64,000 nt of DNA from an uncultured Candidatus Saccharibacteria bacterium (GCA_964364265.1 CAYILA010000004.1:9126-73125), one strand, 5' to 3'. Positions 9,591 to 54,247 are shown, numbered from the stretch's first letter. The notes: generated by a model not told the origin, from the letters alone. A program made the numbers and translations.

Positions 9591-9603
9591 TAGTTTCCCA
9601 ATC

Positions 9604-9716
9604 TCCTACGAAATTACGAATCAAACGAAATTACTAAACTACTAAATTACGAATATTAAATGCGCTTTTCGTAATTTAGTATTTTTGTTGAATTCGTACT
9701 TTCGTAGGGTTATTAT
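9604..9716. promoter_or_regulatory. PE-3 palindromic leader element (cctacgaaattacgaat ... attcgtactttcgtagg) between rpsO and pnp
   Basis: Large imperfect inverted repeat with inner hairpin actaaattacgaa/ttcgtaatttagt; in the position of the rpsO-pnp intercistronic processing hairpin; family copies at 13905-14012, 38232-38380, 53909-53965. Confidence 0.5.
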
Positions 9717-10007
9717 TTATTTTCTTAAACCTAAATCAGTAATTAATTTACTGTACTTCTCTGCGTTTACTTTGTTCAGGTAATTTAGAAGTCGGCGTCT
9801 CTTGCCAACCATCATCAAAAGACCTCGGCGGGAATCAAAATCTTTCTTATGATTCTTCAAGTGTTTGGTCAAATCAGAGATCTTTTTAGTTAAAACCGCG
9901 ATTTGGACTTCGGTTGAACCGGTATCATCCTTGTGGGTCTGATATTTGGTAATCAAATCAACTCTGGCAGCTTTTCCTGTATTCTGCCCCTGTACTGTCT
10001 TTGGCAT
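9717..10007 (-). CDS. rpsO: 30S ribosomal protein S15
   Basis: 96 aa, full-length S15 similarity. Confidence 0.95.
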   Translation of the reverse strand: MPKTVQGQNTGKAARVDLITKYQTHKDDTGSTEVQIAVLTKKISDLTKHLKNHKKDFDSRRGLLMMVGKRRRLLNYLNKVNAEKYSKLITDLGLRK

Positions 10008-10258: not shown

Positions 10259-10474
10259 TCAGTCTGCTCCAAAAAATGGTCCCGGTCCATGGCTCCGGAT
10301 CACGTGGGCAACAAGAATGCCGTTGCCCAGAACCGGGTCGTTGACCTTGCGGGACAATTCACACGCCTGCAAAGCAGGCACGTCCCGAACCGGTCCCAGC
10401 CGCTCCAAAATCGCCAAACCATGAACTGTGGCGTGGCATTCCAGTACCTGACGTTCATACAATTCTCGTTTCAT
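10259..10474 (-). CDS. Hypothetical small protein, GC-rich (about 60% GC) relative to its surroundings
   Basis: 71-aa ORF; GC hairpin gaggcgccc...gggcgcctc (10209-10235) just downstream; no recognisable family. Confidence 0.3.
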   Translation of the reverse strand: MKRELYERQVLECHATVHGLAILERLGPVRDVPALQACELSRKVNDPVLGNGILVAHVIRSHGPGPFFGAD

Positions 10475-10584
10475 TATTTCCTCCCCATCGGCGCCGGATA
10501 TTTAATATTATTACCTTATATTGATAAAAAAACAACCGCTGGCGGGTTGTTTTTCTCAATACAAGAGAAACATTATTTACTATT

Positions 10585-11736
10585 TTAAATCCTATTGTTT
10601 TCTTTTAGATAGCTCTTAATTTTCCGGATGATTTCAATCGCCGCCGCCGAAAGGGTTTTGTCCGGCATCTGAAAAGCGGCCGCCATCATGTGACCGCCTC
10701 CGCCGAAGAGCTTGGCGATCTCGGCCACATCGATAGAGGGAACGGATGAACGCAAAGAACCGTGAACCTCACCGCTCTTTTCCGAAAGAAGGAGAGCAAA
10801 ATTGGCGCCGGAGGCGGTTTTCAAAAGCTCGTCAATCAGGCCGCCCGATTCGTCCTCAGTCGCGGAAACCTCGGCAAAATCGCGCTTTCTAAGCTCGGAC
10901 CAGACGAATTTGTAGGCCATTTCGTCGTGCAAGTTAGAAAGAGCCCGCCCCCACAGCCGCAAAGTGGAAAGGGTTTTGGTTTTATAGATATTTTTAATAA
11001 TATCCTGCTGGCGCCCGCCTGATGCCACTAATTGGGCCGCCACCGTCAGGGATTTTGGAGTCGTGTTGGCATTTTGGAATGAGTTCGTATCGGCGATAAT
11101 ACCGGTTAGGAGAGAGGTGGCGATCGGTTCGTCGATGAATTTCGGATCGCCGGTCATAGCTTCAAAGACCGAGACCAGTATTTCAGAGGTTGATGTGGCC
11201 GTCATATCGATCAGATTAATCTTTCCAAAGTGGGTGTTGCCCGAATGATGGTCGATGTTTACTAGCGGTAATGAATAAAAGAGTTCGGCATTTTTTTCAT
11301 AGACCTCGCCCAGTCGCTCCAAATCGGTCGAATCAAGACAGATCACGGCGTCGTAGCCAAATCCGCCCTCCGGAAAAGTGACCATATCCGGTTCAAACTG
11401 CCCCATTTTTGGTGAAATAATTATCTCGAGTTGGTTGTCTTTGACCTTATATAGAAGCTTGTCAGCTTTAATATCTGAAACATTCAAAGAGATCACAAAA
11501 TCTTTTGTCGCCTTGAACTGGTCCTTGATCTCGGTAATTTCTTTTAAATAATTGAAGACGGCCGGCATCGAATCGTTGCAGACGGCCGTCACCTCTTTGC
11601 CCAGCTTTTTCATAGCCAAAACCACGGCCAAAGTGCTTCCGATCGCATCGCCGTCCGGTGATTTGTGAGTAAAAATAATAAACTTCTGTTTATTTCGTAA
11701 AATGTCGACGACTTGTTGTTTGGGTGTAAGTTCCAT
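10585..11736 (-). CDS. nrnA: DHH/DHHA1 phosphoesterase, NrnA-like nanoRNase / pAp phosphatase
   Basis: DHH motif NIDHHSGN and DHHA1 GGGGH motif. Confidence 0.85.
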   Translation of the reverse strand: MELTPKQQVVDILRNKQKFIIFTHKSPDGDAIGSTLAVVLAMKKLGKEVTAVCNDSMPAVFNYLKEITEIKDQFKATKDFVISLNVSDIKADKLLYKVKDNQLEIIISPKMGQFEPDMVTFPEGGFGYDAVICLDSTDLERLGEVYEKNAELFYSLPLVNIDHHSGNTHFGKINLIDMTATSTSEILVSVFEAMTGDPKFIDEPIATSLLTGIIADTNSFQNANTTPKSLTVAAQLVASGGRQQDIIKNIYKTKTLSTLRLWGRALSNLHDEMAYKFVWSELRKRDFAEVSATEDESGGLIDELLKTASGANFALLLSEKSGEVHGSLRSSVPSIDVAEIAKLFGGGGHMMAAAFQMPDKTLSAAAIEIIRKIKSYLKENNRI

Positions 11737-15552: not shown

Positions 15553-16512
15553 TCATCTAAGACAAAATTCCGCCAGAACCAAATCGAGCGCTAGTCTTAC
15601 TTCAATCTGTCCGTTTTTTATCTCCTTATCAATATTTCCCAATCTTAAAAAAAAGTTTTGAATCTCTTTCTGGCCGCTGTTTTTCAGATTATTAATCGTT
15701 TTTGAAACGACAAAGGGATGCATTTTGACTATTTTGGCAATATTTCCTTGCGATTCTCCCCTTATGTAATAATCAAGGACTGAAAGCATCGTCCGGTATT
15801 GGTAAACGATCATTGAAAAAATCAGGTTTTCATTCACTCCTCCCTTAATTAGCTTGTCCATAACCATACAGGCTCTTTTTCCGTTCCTTGCCGCCACCGC
15901 ATCGATCAGGTCAAAATTAGTGCTGAAATTTTCCGGCGCCAGATTTTCCTCAATGTCTCCTATTGTAATGTTCTCACGCCCGTTTGCCATGGCATAAAGC
16001 GATAATTTTTCAATCTCGGAATTTATCCGCCAAAGGTCGGAGCCCGAAAATTCGGCAATTTTTTCAGCCTCTTTTTGACCAATCCTGATTCCCAAGCTCT
16101 TCCCCTTCCCGATAATCCAGCTGAATAATCTGGAACCGATAATCTGTTTGAATTCAAATGCTTGTTTTGGCTTATTTAATTTTTTGAATAGCGAACTTCT
16201 CTTGTCCGGCAGGCCTGATTCTCTAAATATTATCAATGTCGTATCTGGAATTTTTTCCAAATTTTTGCCAATATATTCGGCCAAAGTTTTATCCTTATTT
16301 TCAAGCAAAAAATTCCTGATTTCGACAATTTTTTTGGCCGAAAATATAGAGACGGCAAAAGCAACCTCATCAAATTGCGGTTTGGTCAGATCGTCTCCGT
16401 TTAGAACAAAAACCTCCGGCGGAAACTCCGCCTTCGCCAGAATCTGCTCTTTTAAGGAAACGATTTTTTCTTTGAGAGAGAATGTATCCTCTCCGTAAAA
16501 TAGATAAAACAT
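15553..16512 (-). CDS. holA: DNA polymerase III delta subunit
   Basis: N-terminus MFYLFYGEDTF and length typical of HolA. Confidence 0.75.
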   Translation of the reverse strand: MFYLFYGEDTFSLKEKIVSLKEQILAKAEFPPEVFVLNGDDLTKPQFDEVAFAVSIFSAKKIVEIRNFLLENKDKTLAEYIGKNLEKIPDTTLIIFRESGLPDKRSSLFKKLNKPKQAFEFKQIIGSRLFSWIIGKGKSLGIRIGQKEAEKIAEFSGSDLWRINSEIEKLSLYAMANGRENITIGDIEENLAPENFSTNFDLIDAVAARNGKRACMVMDKLIKGGVNENLIFSMIVYQYRTMLSVLDYYIRGESQGNIAKIVKMHPFVVSKTINNLKNSGQKEIQNFFLRLGNIDKEIKNGQIEVRLALDLVLAEFCLR

Positions 16513-16635
16513 AGTAAAAGTATTAAGTATCCAGTATTAAGTATCCAGTATCAAGGAATGTCATAGACACAATGTATTTTGTGGTTAACCCCCTAATACC
16601 AAATACCTGATACTTGATACTGCACTAAGCGAAGC

Positions 16636-17928
16636 TTAGTGCTTTGCTTCCAGCCAGTTCTTGCCGTAGGCGACCTCCACTTCAAGAGGAACACAAAGCT
16701 TAACCGCCCCTTCCATCACCTCTTTAATCATTTTCGATACCGATTCGGCATCTTCTTCCGGCGCTTCCGCCACCAGTTCGTCATGAACAGTCAGAATCAA
16801 TCTCGGTCGTCGGCCTGCCTCGCCGGTGGGCGGGTCGTCGGTCGTCGGTCGTCGGTTAATTTCTTTATCCAATTCGATCATTGCCAGTTTCAATATCTCC
16901 GCCGCCGTGCCCTGGACCGGCGTATTGATCGCCATTCGCTCTCCGGCATTGGCCGTCTGCCAATTTTCCGATTTCAATTCGGCGATGTTGCGGCGGAAGC
17001 CGAACAGCGTCTCAACATAGCCGTCCTTGTCCGCCTTGGCCCGCATATTTTTGACATACCGGGCGATGCCGGTGTGGACATCGAAATATTTATCGATATA
17101 ATTTTGGGCATCCTGCCGGTTGATTCCCAGCGCCTGTGACAAACCGTATGAGGTCTGGCCGTATAAAACCCCGAAGTTAACTGTTTTGGCCGCCCTGCGT
17201 TGTTCTTTGGTCACCTTGTCGGCCGGGACGCCGAAAATCTCCGATGCTGTTTTCGAGTGAATGTCGACTCCGCTCTCAAACGCCTTCAACATCACCTCGT
17301 CTTGCGCCAGACAGGCCACGATTCTAAGCTCAATCTGCGAATAATCGGCCGAGATCAAAACCATTCTCTCCGGCGCGATAAATGCTTTTCTGATCTCGTC
17401 GCCAAGCTCACCCTTGATCGGAATATTTTGCAGATTGGGATTTTTGGATGTCATTCGGCCGGTCGAAGTTTCCTGGCCGTAAGTGGTGTGAATCCGGCCG
17501 TCTTTAGTTACCAAGGCCGGCAGAGGTTTTAAATATGTCGAGACCAATTTTGAAAGTTCGCGGTATTCCAAAACCGGTTCGATAATTTTGTGTTTGCTTT
17601 TTAATTTAGACAGTTCCGGCGCCGCCGTAGAAATCCCCGACTTTGTTTTTTTAAGGTCAAAAATGGGAAGCTTGAGTTTTTTGAATAAAAGTTCCGCCAT
17701 TTGGCTCGGAGAATTGATATTAAACTTTTCTCCCGCCGCCTTGTATATTTCCTTTTCCAGTTTCGATATTCTGATTTCGAGTCTCCGCTGGAGCTCGCTC
17801 AAAACTTTTCTATCGATTAATATCCCGGCGTTCTCCATGGCGCGCAAAACCGGCTCGACTTGTCTGTCGATCTCTCCCGCACTGATATTCGGGATTTTGA
17901 CGCCCTTTTCACGTAGATGTGACCACAT
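16636..17928 (-). CDS. polA: DNA polymerase I, polymerase domain only
   Basis: Pol A motifs (ISADYSQIELRI, RRAAKTVNFGVLYG, HDELV); carries an in-frame PPTGEAGRRPR insertion from a GC palindrome at 16800-16860. Confidence 0.85.
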   Translation of the reverse strand: MWSHLREKGVKIPNISAGEIDRQVEPVLRAMENAGILIDRKVLSELQRRLEIRISKLEKEIYKAAGEKFNINSPSQMAELLFKKLKLPIFDLKKTKSGISTAAPELSKLKSKHKIIEPVLEYRELSKLVSTYLKPLPALVTKDGRIHTTYGQETSTGRMTSKNPNLQNIPIKGELGDEIRKAFIAPERMVLISADYSQIELRIVACLAQDEVMLKAFESGVDIHSKTASEIFGVPADKVTKEQRRAAKTVNFGVLYGQTSYGLSQALGINRQDAQNYIDKYFDVHTGIARYVKNMRAKADKDGYVETLFGFRRNIAELKSENWQTANAGERMAINTPVQGTAAEILKLAMIELDKEINRRPTTDDPPTGEAGRRPRLILTVHDELVAEAPEEDAESVSKMIKEVMEGAVKLCVPLEVEVAYGKNWLEAKH

Positions 17929-31542: not shown

Positions 31543-31661
31543 TCTAATATCCTTTGATGCAGTCTAGCGGTCCGCCTGCCCTCCGGGCAGAGCGAGATCT
31601 CGCCCGAAGGGCGGACAGGACAGCGGATTCTGGCTCCGCCAACCTAGGTTCGAATCCTAGT
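31543..31661 (+). pseudogene. tRNA-Gln duplicate with a 43-nt palindromic insertion in the D-loop and a degenerate 5' acceptor strand
   Basis: From gtctagcgg onward identical to tRNA-Gln (31455-31528) except for the insert tccgcctgccctccgggcagagcgagatctcgcccgaagggcgg at 31561-31603; 5' strand tttgatg pairs poorly. Confidence 0.4.
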
Positions 31662-31698
31662 CTCGGAACCAAAAAAAACGAATACCCTCTCGGTAGTC
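31661..31698 (+). terminator. Rho-independent terminator after the tRNA cluster
   Basis: aaaaaaaacgaatacc-ctctc-ggtagtcgtttttt. Confidence 0.75.
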
Positions 31699-31856
31699 GT
31701 TTTTTAAATGAAGAGAAACTGTTTTCGCTTATCGCTAAAGTAAATTCAATCGGGGAGCGTCAAAGTCGCCCAACATTAAAAGGATGGTCGGCCTCGGGCC
31801 AAGACTTGCTTACTAGCTAATTTGCTGATGCGCTGACTAGCTGATAAGCTAATCTT

Positions 31857-32414
31857 ATGAACACCCCGATTTTTGTCATTTCCGGACCCTCCGGATCGGG
31901 CAAGGACTCTGTCATTGCCCCCTATAAAAATAATCCGGCTTTTTCGATTTTGGTGACCTGCACCACTCGTCCTATCCGCGAGGGTGAGATCGCCGACAGG
32001 GATTACCATTTCCTGTCAGACGATGAGTTCGAAAAAGAAATCCAAAACGACCACTTTCTCGAATGGGAACCGGTTTTTAATGACAAATACGGCAGTCGGA
32101 AAAACGATCTGGAGAATTTATTAAAATTAGGCCGTCCGGTAATCGCAAAACTCGATGTCAAGGGGGCGATGAACATAAAAAAGCGCTATCCCGATGCTGC
32201 GACCGTTTTCATAATGCCGCCCGATATCAAAGACGCTGAAAAACGGCTCGAAAAGCGTTCGACCGAGAGCGAAGAAGCGATCTGCGTCCGCAAATCCCGC
32301 TATCGACTCGAGCTCGGTTACAAGGATAAATTTGATTTTGTAATCATCAACGACGATCTTAAAAAAGCGCAAGAGGAGTTTGCGTCAATAATCCAGCGCT
32401 TTATCAACATTTGA
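31857..32414 (+). CDS. gmk: Guanylate kinase
   Basis: P-loop ISGPSGSGKDS and GMP-binding region. Confidence 0.85.
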   Translation: MNTPIFVISGPSGSGKDSVIAPYKNNPAFSILVTCTTRPIREGEIADRDYHFLSDDEFEKEIQNDHFLEWEPVFNDKYGSRKNDLENLLKLGRPVIAKLDVKGAMNIKKRYPDAATVFIMPPDIKDAEKRLEKRSTESEEAICVRKSRYRLELGYKDKFDFVIINDDLKKAQEEFASIIQRFINI

Positions 32415-32445: not shown

Positions 32446-32871
32446 ATGAATAATACTGATAAAAATGATATGACCGTTTCCGAGCTTGCCCGGATAATGG
32501 ACAAAAAGTTTGACGGATTGACCGAGATTATGATCTCCGGTTTTGACCGTTTGGAAAAACGATCGGACGATATAGAGAGCGATGTAGAGATCATCAAATC
32601 CGATGTCGGAGTACTCAAGTCTGATGTTGGCACGCTCAAGTCTGATGTTGGCACGCTCAAGTCTGATGTTGGCACGCTCAAGTCTGATGTTGGCACGCTC
32701 AAGTCTAGTATGATAGATGTTCAATTAACTCAGAGAAAACATACTGAAACGCTTGCCGAACATTCAAAAATCCTTCACCGGATAGAAGGCGATGTAGAGA
32801 TGCTGATCGACCGCGACCTCAATCATGAAACGCGTATCGGAAGATTGGAAAAAATCGCCAAACCGATTTAA
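32446..32871 (+). CDS. Coiled-coil protein with 4 tandem 7-aa repeats (KSDVGTL) from a 21-nt DNA repeat
   Basis: caagtctgatgttggcacgct x4 at 32618-32701; heptad periodicity. Confidence 0.5.
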   Translation: MNNTDKNDMTVSELARIMDKKFDGLTEIMISGFDRLEKRSDDIESDVEIIKSDVGVLKSDVGTLKSDVGTLKSDVGTLKSDVGTLKSSMIDVQLTQRKHTETLAEHSKILHRIEGDVEMLIDRDLNHETRIGRLEKIAKPI

Positions 32872-32879
32872 TTATTGTT

Positions 32880-32925
32880 CGAGCGAGGTCGCCACGGCGA
32901 CCGAATCGAGAACTCCTCGTCCACT
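32880..32925. repeat. ttgttcgagc-hairpin-tcgagaac element (family copies at 52140-52200 and 53950-54005)
   Basis: gttcgagcgaggtcgccacggcgaccgaatcgagaac. Confidence 0.5.
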
Positions 32926-33059
32926 GTCATTTCGAGTGATCCGCCAGCTGGCGGAGAACCGAGAAATCTTCTGATTAATGTGATCAAACAAAAAAGACCC
33001 CGTCATTCGACAGGGTCCTTTTGCTTCTTCCGTATAGCTTAACAAATTAAGCAATTCGG

Positions 33060-33340
33060 GGAAGCGGCCGCCCACGGGGGGCGGCACGCTGTTCTGCTAG
33101 GTTTGAACGACGGCCCTAGCAAGCCTAAGACCAGAAGGATCAAATATTGATCACTTTGGTCTTGCCTCAATCCGGATTAGATTAAGGCAGGTGACGAGCG
33201 GGACGCGCCCCGACCCCATATAGGGGATGGCAAGCGGGGGCAATACCCACGGCGCTCCATAGAGCGTGTCCGCACTCGGAGACAAAGCTTGCTTTCGCAT
33301 GGTTCCTTGCCTCGAGGGTCCTCCTCCTGGATCAGGAGGA
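33060..33340. ncRNA. Candidate structured ncRNA of unknown class inside a 780-bp gene-free region
   Basis: Five or more consecutive stable hairpins (gccgccc-acgg-gggcggc, gctagg...cctagc, aagaccagaagg...cactttggtctt, cccc-atat-agggg, gcgctc-cata-gagcgt); no ORF; RNase P, tmRNA and SRP signature motifs not convincingly found. Confidence 0.25.
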
Positions 33341-33354
33341 GTTAGAGGAGGTAG

Positions 33355-33415
33355 TTAAATAGATTTTTCTATCTTACTACCCTCACTAACTCTCCCTAAT
33401 CTAGGGAGAGAACAT
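33355..33415. repeat. Hairpin B copy (ctccctaatctagggagag) of the DUF559-element family
   Basis: cttactaccctcactaactctccctaatctagggagag. Confidence 0.4.
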
Positions 33416-33626
33416 ATCGAGACAAAGCGACTTGGCGCGAATGTGCGCCAGATCAGCATGCTACGCGTCTATGCTTACTTGCCCCAAAGGGGACCCCTTG
33501 GGTCTTACCAGCTTACGCGCTTACAAGCTTTATTATGTTGTTAAAGAACTGATTGAACCCTGGAGGGCCCAATCCCACTCTCATCATTGATGCAGATATT
33601 ACCACATATCGCATCATTTGTCAACC

Positions 33627-33665: not shown

Positions 33666-34793
33666 TTACTTACCTATTAGATTCGTAAAAACTGGCTCGT
33701 ACTCTCGGCTGATATCGCTCCAGAGGAACTCATTTGCCCGTTTTAGGCCATTTTTTGCATATTTTTCGTATTTTCGCTTGTCATTTAACACACTCACAAT
33801 AGCCTCGGCGAGTGCCTTCGTATCGGCCGGTTTTATGAGCTCTCCAGACTCATTATTTTCAATAATATCCTTGAGGCCGCCCACACTCGAGGCGATCACC
33901 GGAATGCCCGCCGAAAGCCCCTCCAGGGCAACGATTCCAAATGGCTCGTTTAGAGAGGGAACTATGAGTAAATCCCACTCTTTCAAGTACTTATCTGCCT
34001 CTGTTTTTCTTCCCAGCAGCTTCACCTGCCCTTCCAGCTTCAGTTTACGAATGATTGATTCCAATCGCTTACGATCCCCCCCCTCGCCGATAATCTCCAG
34101 TTTGACTGATGGGATCTTTTCCAATATCGCCGGCATTGCCTCTACTAGATATCTAAATCCTTTGCGCTCATTCAGCTGTCCGATTGCGCCGATAACCGGC
34201 TTTTGGTTAGCTTCAGTTTTAGCCTTGTCTGATATCAATTTTTCAATTCCGTTTGGAATCACCGTAGTCCGCTCCGGATCGGCCATTTTGTTCTCAACTA
34301 AATATTCCTTGACCGAATTGGAGACGGCGATAATCAGGTCGGTTTTCTGATTCAGGCGTGACAACAACATTTTTTGTAAATAATGATTGATAGGATTTCT
34401 TATTCTGTACCCATAATCAAAGATATGTTCGGTATAAATATACTTAGCCCCGTGAACTTTGAGTATCCGGCCCAGAAACCCGGCCCGCGGCCCGTGAAGA
34501 TGGATGATTACCGGTCCAAAGGGATCTTTTGACTCGGCTCTTATCTTATCGATCAATCGATGCAGGGCATAGGCGGAAATGAGATCGTATTTTGATTTAA
34601 ATTCAAGGTTTTTGATATCAAGACGGGTCAGCTTCCGCGCTTCATCATTCAAATACCCTTCGGGACAGATCAAGGTACACTCGAATGATTCTCTGTTGAT
34701 GCCGGATAGCAAACCCAGAATATGCTTCGGACCCCCGCCCAAAGCAGAATCACCGATTACCTCAATCAGTTTTATCTTCCTCTTTGTTTTCAT
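33666..34793 (-). CDS. Glycosyltransferase family 4 (GT-B fold)
   Basis: C-terminal GT1/GT4 EX7E-type motif region (EPFGIVALEGLSAGIPVIAS). Confidence 0.85.
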   Translation of the reverse strand: MKTKRKIKLIEVIGDSALGGGPKHILGLLSGINRESFECTLICPEGYLNDEARKLTRLDIKNLEFKSKYDLISAYALHRLIDKIRAESKDPFGPVIIHLHGPRAGFLGRILKVHGAKYIYTEHIFDYGYRIRNPINHYLQKMLLSRLNQKTDLIIAVSNSVKEYLVENKMADPERTTVIPNGIEKLISDKAKTEANQKPVIGAIGQLNERKGFRYLVEAMPAILEKIPSVKLEIIGEGGDRKRLESIIRKLKLEGQVKLLGRKTEADKYLKEWDLLIVPSLNEPFGIVALEGLSAGIPVIASSVGGLKDIIENNESGELIKPADTKALAEAIVSVLNDKRKYEKYAKNGLKRANEFLWSDISREYEPVFTNLIGK

Positions 34794-48394: not shown

Positions 48395-48410
48395 TTATGC
48401 TCCATTCTGG

Positions 48411-48483
48411 TATGCCTGGGAGGACTTGAACCTCCGACCCCCAGCTCCGCAAGCTGGTGCTCTATCCGCTGAGCTACAGGCAC
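48411..48483 (-). tRNA. tRNA-Arg (anticodon GCG as read; unusual)
   Basis: Minus-strand cloverleaf: acceptor gtgcctg/caggcat, D-arm gctc-agcggat-agagc, anticodon stem ccagc/gctgg with loop ttGCGga, T-arm ggagg-ttcaagt-cctcc. Confidence 0.75.
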
Positions 48484-49050: not shown

Positions 49051-49143
49051 TGGCGGAGAGAATGGGATTCGAACCCATGTGGCGGCTTTTAGACCACCGA
49101 CGGTTTAGCAAACCGTTCCCTTAAGCCTCTCGGGCATCTCTCC
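49051..49143 (-). tRNA. tRNA-Ser (anticodon GCT), long variable arm, CCA encoded
   Basis: Acceptor ggagaga/tctctcc, anticodon stem acggt/accgt with loop ttGCTaa, variable arm cggtggtctaaaagccgccac, T-arm atggg-ttcgaat-cccat. Confidence 0.85.
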
Positions 49144-49147
49144 ATAA

Positions 49148-49399
49148 TTATTTCATTAATCTTTTGAAAGCTTCACCGCCTTTATAAGATTTGATTTGTT
49201 TTTCCCGTCTCATCGCTTCTGACCTTGTTTCAAAGATCTCCGTGTATTTGACTATCCAAGGAATGCCGTTCTTAGTAGACCGAGTCATGCCATCGTTGTG
49301 TCTCTCTAATCTGACTGTCATATCCTCGCACGATCCGATATAAAATCTTCCGTGTTTTTTACTTTGAATCACATAAGCATAAAACGACATATAATCCAC
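49148..49399 (-). CDS. GIY-YIG nuclease family small protein
   Basis: YAYVIQSKKHGRFYIGSCEDMTVRLERHN...REKQIK matches the GIY-YIG core; likely start is the ATG at 49390, since the GTG at 49399 lies inside the tRNA-fragment repeat. Confidence 0.8.
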   Translation of the reverse strand: MDYMSFYAYVIQSKKHGRFYIGSCEDMTVRLERHNDGMTRSTKNGIPWIVKYTEIFETRSEAMRREKQIKSYKGGEAFKRLMK

Positions 49400-49442
49400 C
49401 GACGGTTTAGTCCCGCCAACGGCGGGATTCCCTTATCCGCAT
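49391..49442. repeat. Diverged duplicate of the 5' half of tRNA-Ser flanking the GIY-YIG gene
   Basis: ggagagatgc ... aagggaa ... ctaaaccgtcggtgg is shared with the 5' part of tRNA-Ser at 49099-49143. Confidence 0.5.
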
Positions 49443-49594
49443 CTCTCCATTTGTAACACTAAACAAGAGAACTTTGCTATGTTCCCGGTTGCTTGGCTCT
49501 TGTTTTCAGTAACCAAATTACCACAAGTTGACATAATTGTATACTGCAGATGCGTAGTAGTGAGTGCGTACCAAAATATTTCACTTATCTAATT

Positions 49595-49625
49595 CTTGAC
49601 GGCAGTACTACGGAATAGTATATAA
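49595..49625 (+). promoter_or_regulatory. Strong sigma-70-like promoter (TTGACG, 17-nt spacer, TATATAAT) giving a leaderless or near-leaderless transcript for ORF 49634
   Basis: Consensus boxes read directly; ATG 9 nt after the -10 with no RBS. Confidence 0.55.
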
Positions 49626-49633
49626 TCAAACCC

Positions 49634-50158
49634 ATGAAGAAATTACTCCTAATTGCATTATTGAGTTCTGGTTTTGTACCGCTCTCTGCAGGTCAAGCTT
49701 ACGCCCAATGTCCTGTCTGCACCGCCGCCGCGCTGGGCGGCGTCGGCCTGGCCAGGTGGCTGAAAATTGATGATCTGGTGACCGGACTCTGGGTCGGCGG
49801 GGCTCTTGCCTCAACCACAGCCTGGACAATCAACTGGCTAAACAAGAAGAATATCAAATTTGTAGGCAGGAAGATTCTTATAGCTCTCATCACTTACGGA
49901 TTCGTCCTTGTTCCTTTCCACTACAAGGGGATTATCACTCACCCGCGCAATAAATACATCGGCGATTTTTACCTCGGAATCGATAAACTGGTCCTTGGGA
50001 TAATTATCGGCACTATTTTTCTGGCCGTAGCTGTCATGGCTTACGAAACGGTCAAGAGAAAGAACGCCGGCCACGCCCATTTCCCATTCGAAAAAGTTGC
50101 TTTCCCGATCGGCGCTTTGGCAATAATGAGCGTCATATTTTATTTCATAACCAAATAG
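49634..50158 (+). CDS. Hypothetical secreted/membrane protein (signal peptide plus about 4 TM)
   Basis: N-terminal signal-like MKKLLLIALLSSGFVPLSAGQAYA; no family recognised. Confidence 0.45.
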   Translation: MKKLLLIALLSSGFVPLSAGQAYAQCPVCTAAALGGVGLARWLKIDDLVTGLWVGGALASTTAWTINWLNKKNIKFVGRKILIALITYGFVLVPFHYKGIITHPRNKYIGDFYLGIDKLVLGIIIGTIFLAVAVMAYETVKRKNAGHAHFPFEKVAFPIGALAIMSVIFYFITK

Positions 50159-50165
50159 GAACAAG

Positions 50166-50687
50166 ATGGCGATATCCAATCCAGACGACCTGCTCAAAAA
50201 AATCAAATTAAGCAAAGAGAACAAGCTCGACCTTTCGGCCGATGAAGACCTTTCAATTGCTATCATGAACTTGATCTCAATCGAGGAGCACTTCTTCTTC
50301 ACCGCCAAGAAAACCGGCAAAGCCAAGTATTTTGATCTGCTCAAAGAAGTTCGCGAGATGCGGAAAGACCTGCTAAAAAGAATTGTGAAGGACTCCGAAG
50401 GCGAGGTCTGGTGCATCTCCAAGCACCTTTTAGCTTCATCGATGCGCCTGATGGAGGTCGGGACTAAGGAGCTAGGTCGCGGCCGCAAAAAAGAAGCCGA
50501 GGATTTATTCGAAAAGGCCTATAATCTTTATTCCCTGTTCTGGGGCATCAACTTGAATGCTATCGACATTGGAGATGTCAAAAAGATCGACGACGATAAA
50601 ATTGATAAAAACGATACTAAAAAGAACTCCGTAATGAGTAAATTGGGAAGTTTAGTAAAGCGCGCGATAGACTGTTGCATAGAATAA
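50166..50687 (+). CDS. Hypothetical helical cytoplasmic protein
   Basis: Adjacent to the preceding ORF on the same strand (8-nt gap); no family recognised. Confidence 0.45.
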   Translation: MAISNPDDLLKKIKLSKENKLDLSADEDLSIAIMNLISIEEHFFFTAKKTGKAKYFDLLKEVREMRKDLLKRIVKDSEGEVWCISKHLLASSMRLMEVGTKELGRGRKKEAEDLFEKAYNLYSLFWGINLNAIDIGDVKKIDDDKIDKNDTKKNSVMSKLGSLVKRAIDCCIE

Positions 50688-50739
50688 ATCTGTCTTGCCC
50701 TGCGTAGCTCGAAGAGCGAAGTGGGGTTGCATAGAATAA

Positions 50740-51717
50740 CTAATATGGAGCTGGGATCAAGTTGGCGATTATTTTGATGATCGTGTCCTTATCTTTTGGG
50801 TTGCTGATAGCCACCAGTAATGCCAAAGCGACCAAAGTATCTTTGTCGATGCGCAGGAAACCATTTTGATCTAAATAATAGACGAATAGAAGCGAGGCAA
50901 TCCGTTTGTTGCCGTCAAAGAACGGGTGGTCTTTGACCACAAAGTAGAGCAGATGAGATGCTTTCTCGGCTGCAGTCGGATAAAGATCCACCCCATCAAA
51001 ACTTTGATATAAGTTGCCGATAATGCCAGGCAAGCGGTCACCATTATCGCGGCCAAAAAGATCGCCGGCCTCTTTTTTTGATGTGAGGTCATTTTTCAGT
51101 TCCGCTATGATTTTCTGGCAATCTTCATATTCAAGGTGATATTTGCCTTTCGTTCCCTTCGGAAGTTTAAGATTCCCTTCGTCATATTTGTACAACAAAG
51201 AAAACGAATCGGTGTAGTTGTCGATAATTTGAATCAGATCACCCTTTTTGCCTTCCAGCAAATCCGAATCGGCTGAATTCCGGATGAATTTGATAGCGTT
51301 TTGCAGTTCCAGGAATGCTTGCCTTTGCTCAAGCAGACGCTTCTCGTTGACGGCATAGCCCTTCACCAGATAATCCCGCAGTATTTTATTCGCCCAGATA
51401 CGGAATTGCGTCCCTTGTTTTGATTTGACGCGAAAACCGACCGAAATGATGACATCGAGATTGTAATACGCCACCTCGTATGTTTTCCCGTCCGCAGCAG
51501 TTGTTGCAAATTTTGCAACAACTGAATTCTTGGATAGTTCTTTCTCGCGAAAGATATTGCTGATGTGCCGTGAAATTACCGACTTATCACGACAGAAAAG
51601 TTCGGCCATCTGGTCTAAACTTAGCCAAACCGTTTCACCGAGTAATCTAACTTCAATCTTCGCTTTGCCTAAAGCATAGATTTTAACTTCACCCTTTTTG
51701 AGTTCTTCCTTTTTCAT
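50740..51717 (-). CDS. Fic/Doc family protein with an N-terminal RhuM-like domain
   Basis: RhuM-like N-terminus (TVWLSLDQMAELFCRDKSVISRHISNIF ... YNLDVIISVGFRVKS ... GTQFRIWA) and Fic motif HPFFDGNKRIASLLF. Confidence 0.85.
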   Translation of the reverse strand: MKKEELKKGEVKIYALGKAKIEVRLLGETVWLSLDQMAELFCRDKSVISRHISNIFREKELSKNSVVAKFATTAADGKTYEVAYYNLDVIISVGFRVKSKQGTQFRIWANKILRDYLVKGYAVNEKRLLEQRQAFLELQNAIKFIRNSADSDLLEGKKGDLIQIIDNYTDSFSLLYKYDEGNLKLPKGTKGKYHLEYEDCQKIIAELKNDLTSKKEAGDLFGRDNGDRLPGIIGNLYQSFDGVDLYPTAAEKASHLLYFVVKDHPFFDGNKRIASLLFVYYLDQNGFLRIDKDTLVALALLVAISNPKDKDTIIKIIANLIPAPY

Positions 51718-51837
51718 AACACCCCTCCTTAAATATTAAGACGATCATACCGAACATATACCAAACATGTCAACACATAGTTATAGAAAAGGCGGCTGGC
51801 TGGAGATAAGCTCCAACACAGCCGCCTGAATTGCGGT

Positions 51838-52047
51838 TCACCCGCCGCGTTTTGCCGCCGCCCGTTTGAACGAGCGGCGCACTCGCAAGGGAACAAATGT
51901 TTCCGGGTTGCTTCTGCAAGTCCCCGGGCAAGGACAGAGTGTTTTAACCTGATAACCCGAGGCATTGGGCATATACCGAACATGAATATGCCCGTCGCAA
52001 TATACGGCAGACAAGCCGTATGCTGCTCGCTCAATCATCTGAACCAT
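51838..52047 (-). CDS. Hypothetical small Cys-rich protein in a GC-rich patch (about 58% GC)
   Basis: 69-aa ORF with RBS gagagg; its own terminator hairpin ggcggctg...cagccgcc plus T-run at 51792-51830 on the minus strand. Confidence 0.3.
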   Translation of the reverse strand: MVQMIERAAYGLSAVYCDGHIHVRYMPNASGYQVKTLCPCPGTCRSNPETFVPLRVRRSFKRAAAKRGG

Positions 52048-52270
52048 CGAGACCTCCTCTCAAGGGCGCGTCCAGTCGAAATGATAGTACATTATGGCTC
52101 TCAAATTAGTCAACAAAAAAGCTGGGTGACCGCAAGGTTAAAAGGCTCTTTTCCTATTGATAGTTCTCGACCCCGCCTTGGCGGGGCTCGAACAATAATG
52201 AAGCTGGATTCCCGCTGGAGTTTATCCCGTACTCCGATACGGGGCGGGAATGACTCGACAAAATATCGCC

Positions 52271-53521
52271 TTAAATTTTCCCTCGTAACTTGGCGGCGGA
52301 GAGGATGCGTTTCATAGCTATAATGTAGGCCGCGGTGCGGTAGTCGGTTTTTGATTCCTTCGCCTGATCGGAAACCCGCTTCCAGGCGTCTTTCATCATT
52401 AGTTCAAGCTTCTTCTTCAGGTACTCCGGATCAAGGATATTTCCGGTCCGATTCTGCGCCCACTCAAAGTAGGAGACAACCACGCCTCCGGCGTTGGCTA
52501 GGATATCAGGAACGATCGCCACACCTTTTTCAAACAATATCTTGTCCGCTTCAGGCGTAATTGGCCCGTTTGCAAGTTCAATTATGTACTTGGCTTTAAT
52601 CTTGCCGGCGTTCTCCTTCGTAATCTGATTTTCAAGCGCCGCCAATATCAGGACATCAACATCCAATTCCAATAATTCATCATTGGAAATCTGCCGGCCC
52701 ATTGGACATTCACAGCTTTTGACGGTACCCTCTTTTTCCTTCAAAGCCGTTAGTTTATCAAAGCAGATCTTTTTTTGGCAGTTCATCCCCCCTCGGCTGT
52801 CCGAAACGCCGACTATCCGGTATCCGGCATCAAGGAGCATCTTGGCAAAGTTATGCCCGGCGTTGCCGAACCCTTGAATTGCGATTTTTAAGTCCTTTTT
52901 ATTCGTAAGATCCCTCGACTTCGCTCGGGATGACAGGGAGGAGATAAGCTCCTCGAATATTAGATAGGCACCGCGCGCAGTTGAATCCGATCGCAAAGCG
53001 ATTCCGCCAAGGTCGATTGGCTTGCCGGTTATCATCCCCGGCTCATGATGCCCGACTTTCTTCTCGTATTCATCCAAAATCCAAGCCATAATCTGGCCGT
53101 CGGTATAAACATCTGGCGCCGGTATATCGGTGTCCTGTCCCAAGACCTTGTAGAAGGCGCGAGAATAGCTTCTGGAAACTTTTTCTAGGTATTTTTGGCT
53201 CTTGCCCTTCGGATTAAATTTCACTCCGCCTTTTGCGCCGCCGTACGGGAGACCAAGCAAAGAATTTTTCATACTCATCCAAAATGAGAGCGATTTGACC
53301 TCGTCTTCCGATACTTCGGGGTGAAATCTGATCCCGCCCTTGCCCGGTCCCAAATCATTGTTGTGAACAATTCGCCAACTCGGCAGCTTATCGCCTTCAA
53401 TATTCAATATCGATTTGCTGACCTGATGGTGCTTTAATAAATATTTGATCTCGTTGTCATTAAATCCGGCAATATCTTTAATTTTATCTAATCTATCAAT
53501 AATCGAGTTGAATGTGGACAT
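52271..53521 (-). CDS. gdhA: Glutamate dehydrogenase (Glu/Leu/Phe/Val dehydrogenase family)
   Basis: GGIRFHP ... GGAKGG catalytic region and NAD(P)-binding Rossmann motif GFGNAG; in-frame PE-1 half-insertion (LSSRAKSRDL). Confidence 0.9.
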   Translation of the reverse strand: MSTFNSIIDRLDKIKDIAGFNDNEIKYLLKHHQVSKSILNIEGDKLPSWRIVHNNDLGPGKGGIRFHPEVSEDEVKSLSFWMSMKNSLLGLPYGGAKGGVKFNPKGKSQKYLEKVSRSYSRAFYKVLGQDTDIPAPDVYTDGQIMAWILDEYEKKVGHHEPGMITGKPIDLGGIALRSDSTARGAYLIFEELISSLSSRAKSRDLTNKKDLKIAIQGFGNAGHNFAKMLLDAGYRIVGVSDSRGGMNCQKKICFDKLTALKEKEGTVKSCECPMGRQISNDELLELDVDVLILAALENQITKENAGKIKAKYIIELANGPITPEADKILFEKGVAIVPDILANAGGVVVSYFEWAQNRTGNILDPEYLKKKLELMMKDAWKRVSDQAKESKTDYRTAAYIIAMKRILSAAKLRGKI

Positions 53522-53908: not shown

Positions 53909-53965
53909 CTCCTAACTCCTACTAAATTACGAATTTATTCAAAATTACGAAATTACGAATTATTT
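53909..53965. promoter_or_regulatory. PE-3 leader element upstream of trxA
   Basis: cctaactcctactaaattacgaatttattcaaaattacgaaattacgaat. Confidence 0.45.
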
Positions 53966-54247
53966 ATTGTTCGAGCCCCGCCAAGGCGGGGTCGAGAACT
54001 ATCTCTAATATGATCTCGACATTACATGCCTACCGATAGGCAGACCTGCCTGCGGCAGGCAGGTTCGAAGAATAAGTAATAGATATTTTAACAATAGATT
54101 GGAAACAATACAATACAAAAAGTTATCAACAACAAAACTTAAACCAACATGTAAAATAAATTTATATCCTCTAAAATTGGCTTCTGCTCTAATCAATTAA
54201 AAAACTATCTTTTGTGTTTGCAAAAACAAGTTGTCGCGGTAATAACT

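Follow-up and report, generated by a model that had tools for sequence, protein, structure and literature searches.

A conserved cysteine-motif gene pair of Patescibacteria downstream of two tRNA genes, with an accessory RhuM-Fic gene and an orphan GC-rich stretch beside it

The region between 49.6 and 52.3 kb of a 64-kb window (the whole stretch of DNA that was analysed, to which all coordinates refer), taken from a Patescibacteria (candidate phyla radiation, CPR) genome of Hainich groundwater, sample ERZ1292623, owes its main interest to a conserved, unannotated cysteine-motif operon. Its two genes, mem174 (49634-50158) and hel173 (50166-50687), both on the plus strand, are open reading frames (ORFs) of 174 and 173 aa that encode a membrane protein and a helical protein; the gap between them is 7 nt, not the 8 nt given in a preliminary description of this DNA. 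That description had read the region as an accessory island next to tRNA genes, with the pair as part of an undescribed toxin/immunity or defence module. Comparison with related genomes points elsewhere, since the pair is neither island cargo nor a toxin/immunity pair and appears to be a conserved housekeeping operon. The whole region would then hold a conserved operon that may work as a thiol relay, an unrelated accessory RhuM-Fic gene and an orphan GC-rich non-coding stretch, and would not be one island; to this picture, with all of its parts, we give slightly less than an even chance.

All 8000 of the 8000 candidates scored in the hel173 homologue search were relatives, a count that is a lower bound; identity ranges from 68 to 92% in the best 120, whose names read Patescibacteria, Berkelbacteria and the like. 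With a profile, 637 hel173 relatives were recovered from 1.84 billion representatives, and mem174 has at least 620 relatives, at about 50% identity. For comparison we gathered loci (L numbers) and proteins (P numbers), and the pair was surveyed in 85 hel173 loci (L001-L007, L090-L169). According to a mem174 hidden Markov model (HMM), 81 of them have the gene immediately 5' of hel173 in the same orientation; 1 has it at another place, 2 lack it, and the remaining locus is truncated. In relatives the order of genes is GT4, NDK, M16 peptidase, a 167-aa protein, tRNA-Arg, tRNA-Ser and then the pair, which sits after the same tRNAs in L001, L004 and L005; the genes 3' of the pair differ from genome to genome. 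The corresponding tRNA genes of the window, both upstream of the pair, are tRNA-Arg(GCG) at 48408-48483 and an intact tRNA-Ser(GCU) at 49051-49143 on the minus strand. Outside the CPR the hel173 family is met in Synergistaceae too, and the pair as a whole appears to be vertically inherited and conserved throughout Patescibacteria, and to be present also in Synergistaceae.

Composition does not set the two genes apart. GC content is 46.2% in the whole window, 48.2% and 43.7% in the two cassette genes and 43.0% in RhuM-Fic, and the tetranucleotide distance of 1-kb windows over 49.25-52.75 kb gives z-scores of -1.4 to +0.5, with the cassette windows at the 4th-13th percentile, i.e., among the most typical of the 64 kb. 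Codon-usage log-odds of 0.159 for mem174, 0.282 for hel173 and 0.191 for RhuM-Fic stand beside 0.203 +/- 0.076 for in-frame gene pieces, and codon usage is host-like in all three. The sole compositional outlier between 49.25 and 52.75 kb is a GC-rich stretch of about 300 nt (98th percentile of the window for GC), and it is only for this stretch that the earlier statement of a composition and content different from the housekeeping backbone holds. Both unknown proteins of the cassette were thus found to be conserved core genes of uniform composition, the very outcome that the preliminary description had named as speaking against itself. Because of the conserved adjacency, the flanking synteny and the host-typical composition and codon usage, we do not count the pair as island cargo.

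The idea that everything from 49.6 to 52.3 kb is an accessory island at the tRNA genes, in which the unknown pair acts in toxin/immunity or defence together with RhuM-Fic, can draw on the position of the pair 3' of tRNA-Arg and tRNA-Ser, on the match of RhuM-Fic to a defence candidate, on the variation between relatives in the stretch after hel173 and on a 14-bp repeat at that junction. Apart from the composition, the codon usage, the site kept in relatives and the adjacency in 81 of 85 loci, it has to contend with three further results. The pair occurs with RhuM-Fic in 0 of 80 RhuM-Fic loci, and RhuM-Fic occurs with the pair in 0 of 85 pair loci, so that the co-occurrence which the preliminary description proposed to look for is not seen in these loci. 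Between 49.4 and 52.3 kb there is no integrase or recombinase ORF and no att-type direct repeat of a tRNA 3' end, the only tRNA-derived repeat being a 5'-half copy that flanks a GIY-YIG ORF. Finally, PADLOC has no match for mem174 or hel173. We regard such an island as most improbable. What remains of it is that RhuM-Fic is accessory and that the region 3' of hel173 is variable, the cassette being conserved at the same site; and what remains of the undescribed defence module is RhuM-Fic, which is of defence type but already catalogued (PDC-S23), the cassette consisting of conserved lineage genes.

The first of the two proteins, mem174, is predicted to begin with a signal peptide that is cleaved at an AxA site. 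A hydrophobic N-terminal helix on the outer face comes next, ahead of four transmembrane (TM) helices (AF2 model, pLDDT 88). This agrees with the signal peptide and four TM helices first described and adds one helix to them. An AxA-like site stands immediately before an invariant CxxCT in 55 of 55 aligned proteins; C26, C29, T30, D47 and W53 are among the invariant residues of the alignment, and C26 and C29 are its only invariant cysteines. By positive-inside analysis, loops 68-79 (mean K+R 4.0) and 141-153 (mean K+R 3.0) fall on the cytoplasmic side, with the acidic loop (43-47), like the CxxC, facing outwards, so that after the predicted cleavage the mature N-terminus would be the CxxC itself, on the outer face. 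No relative of mem174 was found in Pfam, NCBIfam, PADLOC, PDB sequence profiles or PDB folds, the Foldseek comparison of the AF2 model with the PDB giving unrelated TM proteins only (best E 0.49).

For hel173 the AF2 model (pLDDT 73) is an all-helical bundle with a low-confidence linker and a C-terminal helix, in keeping with the helical protein first reported. Invariant positions are E40, E41, H42, C83, K86, H87, M93, M96, E97, C170, C171 and E173, and one stretch, GEVWCISKHLLAxSMRLMEVGTK, is near-invariant; as modelled, the protein would be cytoplasmic, with an invariant Cys-x3-His site and a flexible tail ending in Cys-Cys. Pfam, NCBIfam and PADLOC hold no relative of it, PDB sequence profiles give a designed coiled coil only, and the AF2 model searched with Foldseek against the PDB finds generic four-helix bundles below significance (best E 0.18). 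The remark that neither protein has a recognisable family therefore stands, and our literature searches likewise found no description of the mem174-hel173 pair. Inteins tend to occupy catalytic or otherwise critical sites. In the hel173 relatives P0312 and P0347 such an element, with LAGLIDADG, interrupts the protein exactly at W|C83, and the functional core of hel173 is therefore likely to be C83. Other relatives are fused to thiol enzymes, P0254 having an N-terminal thioredoxin domain, and P0277 and P0278 a glutaredoxin inserted before the CC tail. Long hel173 homologues were also considered as mem-hel fusions, and this was rejected, as they are tandem hel duplications.

Clustering of the neighbours in the 85 loci brought out a third gene of about 131 aa, which in 43 of the 59 informative loci is the next gene upstream, in the same orientation and often with an overlap. 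Its product has an N-terminal signal-anchor (with a lipobox in three cases), a CPHC motif, a GVP loop of the cis-Pro type and two further invariant cysteines, and the profile matches glutaredoxin 7c10_A (E 3.6e-7), then thioredoxins and DsbA more weakly; CPHC is the DsbA motif. The Synergistaceae operon encodes, in this order, an exported protein of 144 aa, a mem174 homologue (HMM 5e-14, with SCPLC), a hel homologue and an exported Redoxin/AhpC-TSA-like protein with CPEC; the Synergistaceae mem-hel pair flanked by exported proteins, the Redoxin-like one included, occupies 3849-6275 of L170/L171. At 3874-5879 of L172, which represents another lineage, a hel-glutaredoxin fusion follows an extracytoplasmic function (ECF) sigma factor and a membrane protein.

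We favour a thiol relay because the three components share a cysteine chemistry, one being an exported thioredoxin-fold protein, the second a membrane protein with a CxxC and the third a cytoplasmic cysteine protein, in some relatives joined to thioredoxin or glutaredoxin. Under such a scheme, the exported protein, mem174 and hel173 would together make up a thiol/disulfide relay that spans the membrane. Electrons would be exchanged between hel173 and thioredoxin or glutaredoxin in the cytoplasm and also, by way of mem174, between hel173 and the exported thioredoxin-fold protein. If reductive, the system would follow a DsbD/CcdA-like logic, and if oxidative a DsbB-like one, in both cases built from unrelated proteins. 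The electron relay, its direction and the contact between mem174 and hel173 are all things that we infer. A more ambitious proposal is that the operon encodes an undescribed, quinone-free thiol relay of three components, structurally unrelated to DsbB, VKOR, DsbD and CcdA, near-universal in Patescibacteria and present also in Synergistaceae, in which the Cys-Cys tail of hel173 swings like an arm and is serviced by thioredoxin or glutaredoxin; in this full form we consider it possible but doubtful.

Known systems offer partial parallels. With DsbD/CcdA and its partners ResA/TlpA or Etrx, the operon shares the combination of a polytopic membrane protein carrying one essential cysteine pair and an exported, tethered thioredoxin-fold CxxC protein; the fusion in P0254 ties the hel173 family to cytoplasmic thioredoxin; and in Synergistaceae the mem174 homologue takes the usual position of ccdA, beside an exported Redoxin-like gene. 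Unlike DsbD/CcdA, however, mem174 has four TM helices and not six, shows no similarity to them in sequence or fold (Pfam, PDB, Foldseek), and carries its cysteine pair as a CxxC at the outer mature N-terminus, whereas in DsbD/CcdA the two cysteines sit in separate TM helices; nor do those systems have a counterpart of hel173, the additional helical-bundle protein of the cytoplasm, which is obligatory here and carries a CC tail. The DsbA-DsbB and MdbA-VKOR couples are similar in placing an exported CPHC thioredoxin-fold gene beside a small 4-TM protein that bears an extracytoplasmic CxxC; for the CPR an MdbA-like oxidoreductase has been reported, VKOR being adjacent to it in 88 of 750 genomes (PMC6744442). 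DsbB and VKOR have two extracytoplasmic cysteine pairs and a quinone site, whereas mem174 has one pair and no homology to them, and a cytoplasmic cysteine-protein partner is foreign to those systems.

Several observations weigh against a relay, and they should be set out together. In the first place, mem174 has a single cysteine pair, on the outer face, and lacks any invariant cysteine or histidine in its TM helices or on its cytoplasmic side, which makes it hard to see how reducing equivalents would get across. In the second place, no gene for a thioredoxin-fold partner is present anywhere in the 64-kb window; the lineage of the studied genome carries the two-gene form of the operon. Furthermore, the glutaredoxin insert of the L172 hel fusion matches the HMM of the thioredoxin-fold protein of the CPR operon at 1.9e-21, and the apparent homology between a glutaredoxin inside hel173 homologues and a supposedly exported partner raises a conflict of topology. 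A few hel173 homologues (P0269, P0272) carry an N-terminal signal-anchor, and the confidence of the hel173 model itself is only moderate. To these must be added the metal genes near some of the operons, which point just as much to metal handling: about 10-12 of the 85 loci, and also L007 and L170, have a Cu P-type ATPase or CsoR in the vicinity. In about 9-12 of the 85, a gene for a Cu-type P1B ATPase (HMA + E1-E2) is found no more than 2 kb upstream and in the same orientation; in L007 the trio directly follows CsoR, HMA-DsbD_TM, cupredoxin and CopA; and a CsoR-like gene is found 2.6 kb from the Synergistaceae operon (L170).

Such neighbours would suit a role in the handling of thiophilic metals, e.g., Cu(I), by the pair and the exported CxxC protein, with a logic like that of MerP, MerT and MerA. 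Here the ion would bind to the CxxC of the exported protein and to that on the outer side of mem174, and mem174 would move it across the membrane to hel173, whose Cys-Cys tail and Cys/His/Met site would take it up, hel173 serving as chaperone, buffer or sensor. The invariant C83, H87, H42, M93 and M96 and the vicinal CC of hel173 are in accord with this, and a mem174 without cytoplasmic cysteines fits transport better than an electron relay. The Mer proteins are likewise comparable in general plan, consisting of an exported protein with a CxxC, a small protein of the membrane whose first helix bears a cysteine pair at its outer end, and a cytoplasmic partner that uses a C-terminal vicinal Cys-Cys. 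They differ in that there is no homology, in that the exported partner here has a thioredoxin fold and not the HMA fold, in that hel173 lacks a flavin or NAD(P)H domain, and in that Mer is a resistance cassette whereas mem174-hel173 is housekeeping and near-ubiquitous. Against metal handling speak also the GVP cis-Pro loop and the CPHC of redox-active thioredoxin-fold enzymes in the exported partner, the fusion partners, which are thioredoxin or glutaredoxin and not HMA domains, an identity of about 70% across the superphylum, atypical of metal-resistance genes, and the majority of loci, which have no neighbouring metal gene. We consider this function, the main rival of the relay, unlikely.

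In a third possibility the pair would form a membrane sensor or regulator, anti-sigma-like or otherwise signalling, mem174 sensing redox state or metal with its outer CxxC and hel173 relaying the signal in the cytoplasm. The hel-glutaredoxin fusion stands after an ECF sigma factor and a membrane protein in L172 and L173, the contiguous invariant stretches of hel173 suggest protein-protein interfaces, and the best of its weak Foldseek matches include four-helix sensor domains (LytS-N, chemoreceptor ligand-binding domains). Those matches, however, are not significant, the best having the E of 0.18 already given; neither a DNA-binding nor a sigma-binding domain was detected; no sigma factor or regulator gene recurs beside the pair in the 85 loci; and conservation this high is rare among anti-sigma factors. 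A sensor of this kind thus seems to us quite improbable, and we return to the thiol relay as the reading that we prefer.

Patescibacteria account for a large share of bacterial diversity, and their lineage-enriched protein families are for the most part without assigned function, Méheust et al. having listed 106 CPR-enriched families that are mostly unannotated (PMC6744442). Among such unknowns of Patescibacteria the pair belongs to the most conserved, with about 70% identity across the superphylum and with inteins at the core cysteine, and it provides a testable hypothesis on how these organisms handle extracytoplasmic thiols or thiophilic metals. Should the relay prove true, the few known membrane thiol-relay systems would be joined by one of a new protein architecture. 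The failure of the island reading counts as well, for unknown genes after a tRNA are here no island, and the sole mobile gene is a catalogued RhuM-Doc candidate.

Upstream of mem174, a TTGACG (-35-like, at 49596) and a TATAAT (-10, at 49621-49626) form a promoter-like site on the plus strand (49596..49626), and the TATAAT ends 7 nt 5' of the ATG with no Shine-Dalgarno (SD) sequence. The -10 block, GTATATAATC-N6/7-ATG, is kept in two related genomes (L001, L004), and because of this conservation a leaderless start of mem174, or one with a very short leader, is plausible; the -35 is not kept. A generic promoter scan missed the site because its spacer is 19 nt, and in the region it returned 8 sites, which is chance level when compared with 6.3 +/- 2.7 in shuffles. 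The near-consensus promoter with a leaderless start of the preliminary description is thus retained for its two hexamers, its lack of an SD and its conserved -10 block, and not for any conservation of the -35 or for the outcome of the scan. In the homologous operons, the first gene has no SD-like sequence in 62 of 66 cases, the start calls being approximate, and leaderless starts may be common for this operon across the CPR. A TATAAT-like hexamer 4-12 nt 5' of the ATG was observed in about 44% of operon first genes, in genomes that are AT-rich and with starts that are crude.

Beyond hel173 lies the RhuM-Fic gene (50740-51717, minus strand, 325 aa), which appears to be the only accessory gene of the stretch and of a type already described. 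The fusion was correctly recognised in the preliminary description: Pfam scores are 92.6 bits for RhuM (PF13310, cut-off 33.7) and 42.8 bits for Fic (PF02661, cut-off 24), and the motif HPFFDGNKR at aa 264-272 (50902-50928) fits the core HxFx(D/E)GN(G/K)R. A lysine in GNKR is the Doc-type variant, typical of Doc kinases. The protein matches PDC-S23 of PADLOC-DB v2 over its full length (residues 8-321, E 4e-119), and TIGR01550 DOC_P1 at 30.4 bits, under the cut-off of 38.65. Relatives were scanned in one genome per species, and 203 were confirmed; the best 80 of these, which were studied, are 43-59% identical and are scattered patchily over several CPR classes, Bacteroidota, Bacilli/Tenericutes, Elusimicrobiota, Actinomycetes and Campylobacterota. 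No relatives were found in viral contigs. A restriction-modification context was considered for the gene and rejected, there being no recurrent neighbour in the 80 loci. Anantharaman et al. noted frequent fusions of RhuM to DOC and suggested a function as toxin (PMC3710099). The present gene resembles RhuM-DOC and PDC-S23 in its RhuM N-domain and Fic/Doc C-domain, its GNKR motif, its occurrence as a single gene and its patchy spread across phyla; it is unlike them in lying outside a restriction-modification locus and in having no Phd-like antitoxin gene, for no small upstream antitoxin ORF stands beside it and its neighbour is an ORF without a family, ORF69. We would describe RhuM-Fic as a candidate toxin or defence gene of Doc type, consisting of a single gene, horizontally mobile and set in a variable spot 3' of the operon. 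A strong promoter-like site, TTGACA-18-TATGAT (11/12), lies upstream of it at 51744..51773 on the minus strand and is followed by the SD AAGGAGGGG.

The GC-rich unit follows at 51782..52077 on the minus strand and contains ORF69 (51838-52047, minus strand, 69 aa). Its GC content, first given as 58%, is 55.7% over 51782-52077, reaching 57% in the best 200 nt and 62% in the best 150 nt. The unit is a candidate orphan small RNA: the minimum free energy of its minus strand is -130.2 kcal/mol (z -4.96), the plus strand having z -3.62, and an imperfect GC hairpin, GGCGGCUG...CAGCCGCC, at 51782-51826 is terminator-like and is followed by CUUUUC. This RNA reading is weakened by z values of -4 or lower in 10 of 160 control windows (6%) of the same sequence, and it has no covariation to draw on, as no homologue of the unit was found by any route; blastn, nhmmer and tblastx found no match in the 173 gathered loci, BLAST found none in phages, and Rfam 15 gives nothing at E<=10 in 49380-52320 save one noise match. 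An RNA linked to RhuM-Fic was considered and rejected, since none of the 80 RhuM-Fic loci contains the unit. At 52084..52113 on the minus strand, upstream of the unit, there is a promoter-like TTGACT-18-TACTAT (9/12), which is no better than chance.

The alternative that ORF69 is a real, Cys-rich and perhaps zinc-binding protein of 69 aa, with its own SD and terminator, which came from a donor of higher GC or arose de novo, has its merits: the ORF is intact, a GGAGG stands 5 nt 5' of its ATG, the terminator-like hairpin is at hand, the motifs CDGHIH and CPCPGTC are rich in Cys and His, and the ORF is annotated publicly as a coding sequence. These signals bear out the ribosome-binding site and the terminator of the preliminary description but not the protein, which is improbable: no homologue was found among 5.8 billion proteins, back-translated patterns are unmatched in JGI metagenome DNA, Pfam and NCBIfam have no match, and the codon-usage score of -0.065 is lower than those of all 2000 in-frame gene pieces of the window, i.e., non-coding in character. 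By our estimate, an orphan structured transcript has a little better than an even chance for this unit, non-functional DNA takes most of what is left, and for a real small protein the prospect is slim.

Elsewhere in the window, 33040-33560 is free of ORFs, with a GC content of 0.55-0.59, and its minus strand folds at -235.7 kcal/mol (z -9.7; plus strand z -6.8). It is flanked by a coiled-coil ORF (32446-32871, plus strand) and a GT4 glycosyltransferase (33666-34793, minus strand) and has no Rfam match beyond noise. This is a candidate for an orphan non-coding RNA of about 500 nt, with arguably a better case than that of the GC-rich unit at 51.8-52.1 kb. A TnpB/omega-RNA reading of the 33-kb region was rejected, the adjoining ORF being the glycosyltransferase. 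Additionally, in a coarse scan (12 shuffles), the minus-strand 300-nt windows 9601-9900, 10401-10700, 16401-16700 and 31601-31900 gave fold z-scores of -4.9 to -7.1.

Small repeats mark the region as well. The 14-bp direct repeat GTTGCATAGAATAA occurs exactly at 50674-50687 and 50726-50739 on the plus strand, with 38 nt of unique spacer; the first copy is the last 14 nt of hel173, encoding the invariant (C)CIE and the stop, and the second abuts the stop codon of RhuM-Fic. The repeat may be the scar of a recombination junction at the start of the variable region. A 40-nt hairpin element with the core GAGCCCCGCCAAGGCGGGGTCGAG, which is like a repetitive extragenic palindrome (REP), lies at 52159..52198 and has an exact inverted second copy at 53964-54003. 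One copy is downstream of gdh and one upstream of a thioredoxin gene, and a weaker third is seen near 32868-32914.

On the other side of the pair, a GIY-YIG ORF of 83 aa (49148-49399, minus strand) has the intact tRNA-Ser(GCU) on one side and, on the other, a decayed duplicate of the 5' ~55 nt of that tRNA (49396-49450, minus strand). The homology of the copy stops exactly at ...CCGTCGGTGG, the start of the GIY-YIG ORF, and from this arrangement it looks as if a tiny GIY-YIG element had inserted into the tRNA-Ser gene and restored the gene with its own copy of the 5' half. GIY-YIG ORFs are found nearby in the relatives L001 and L099 also.

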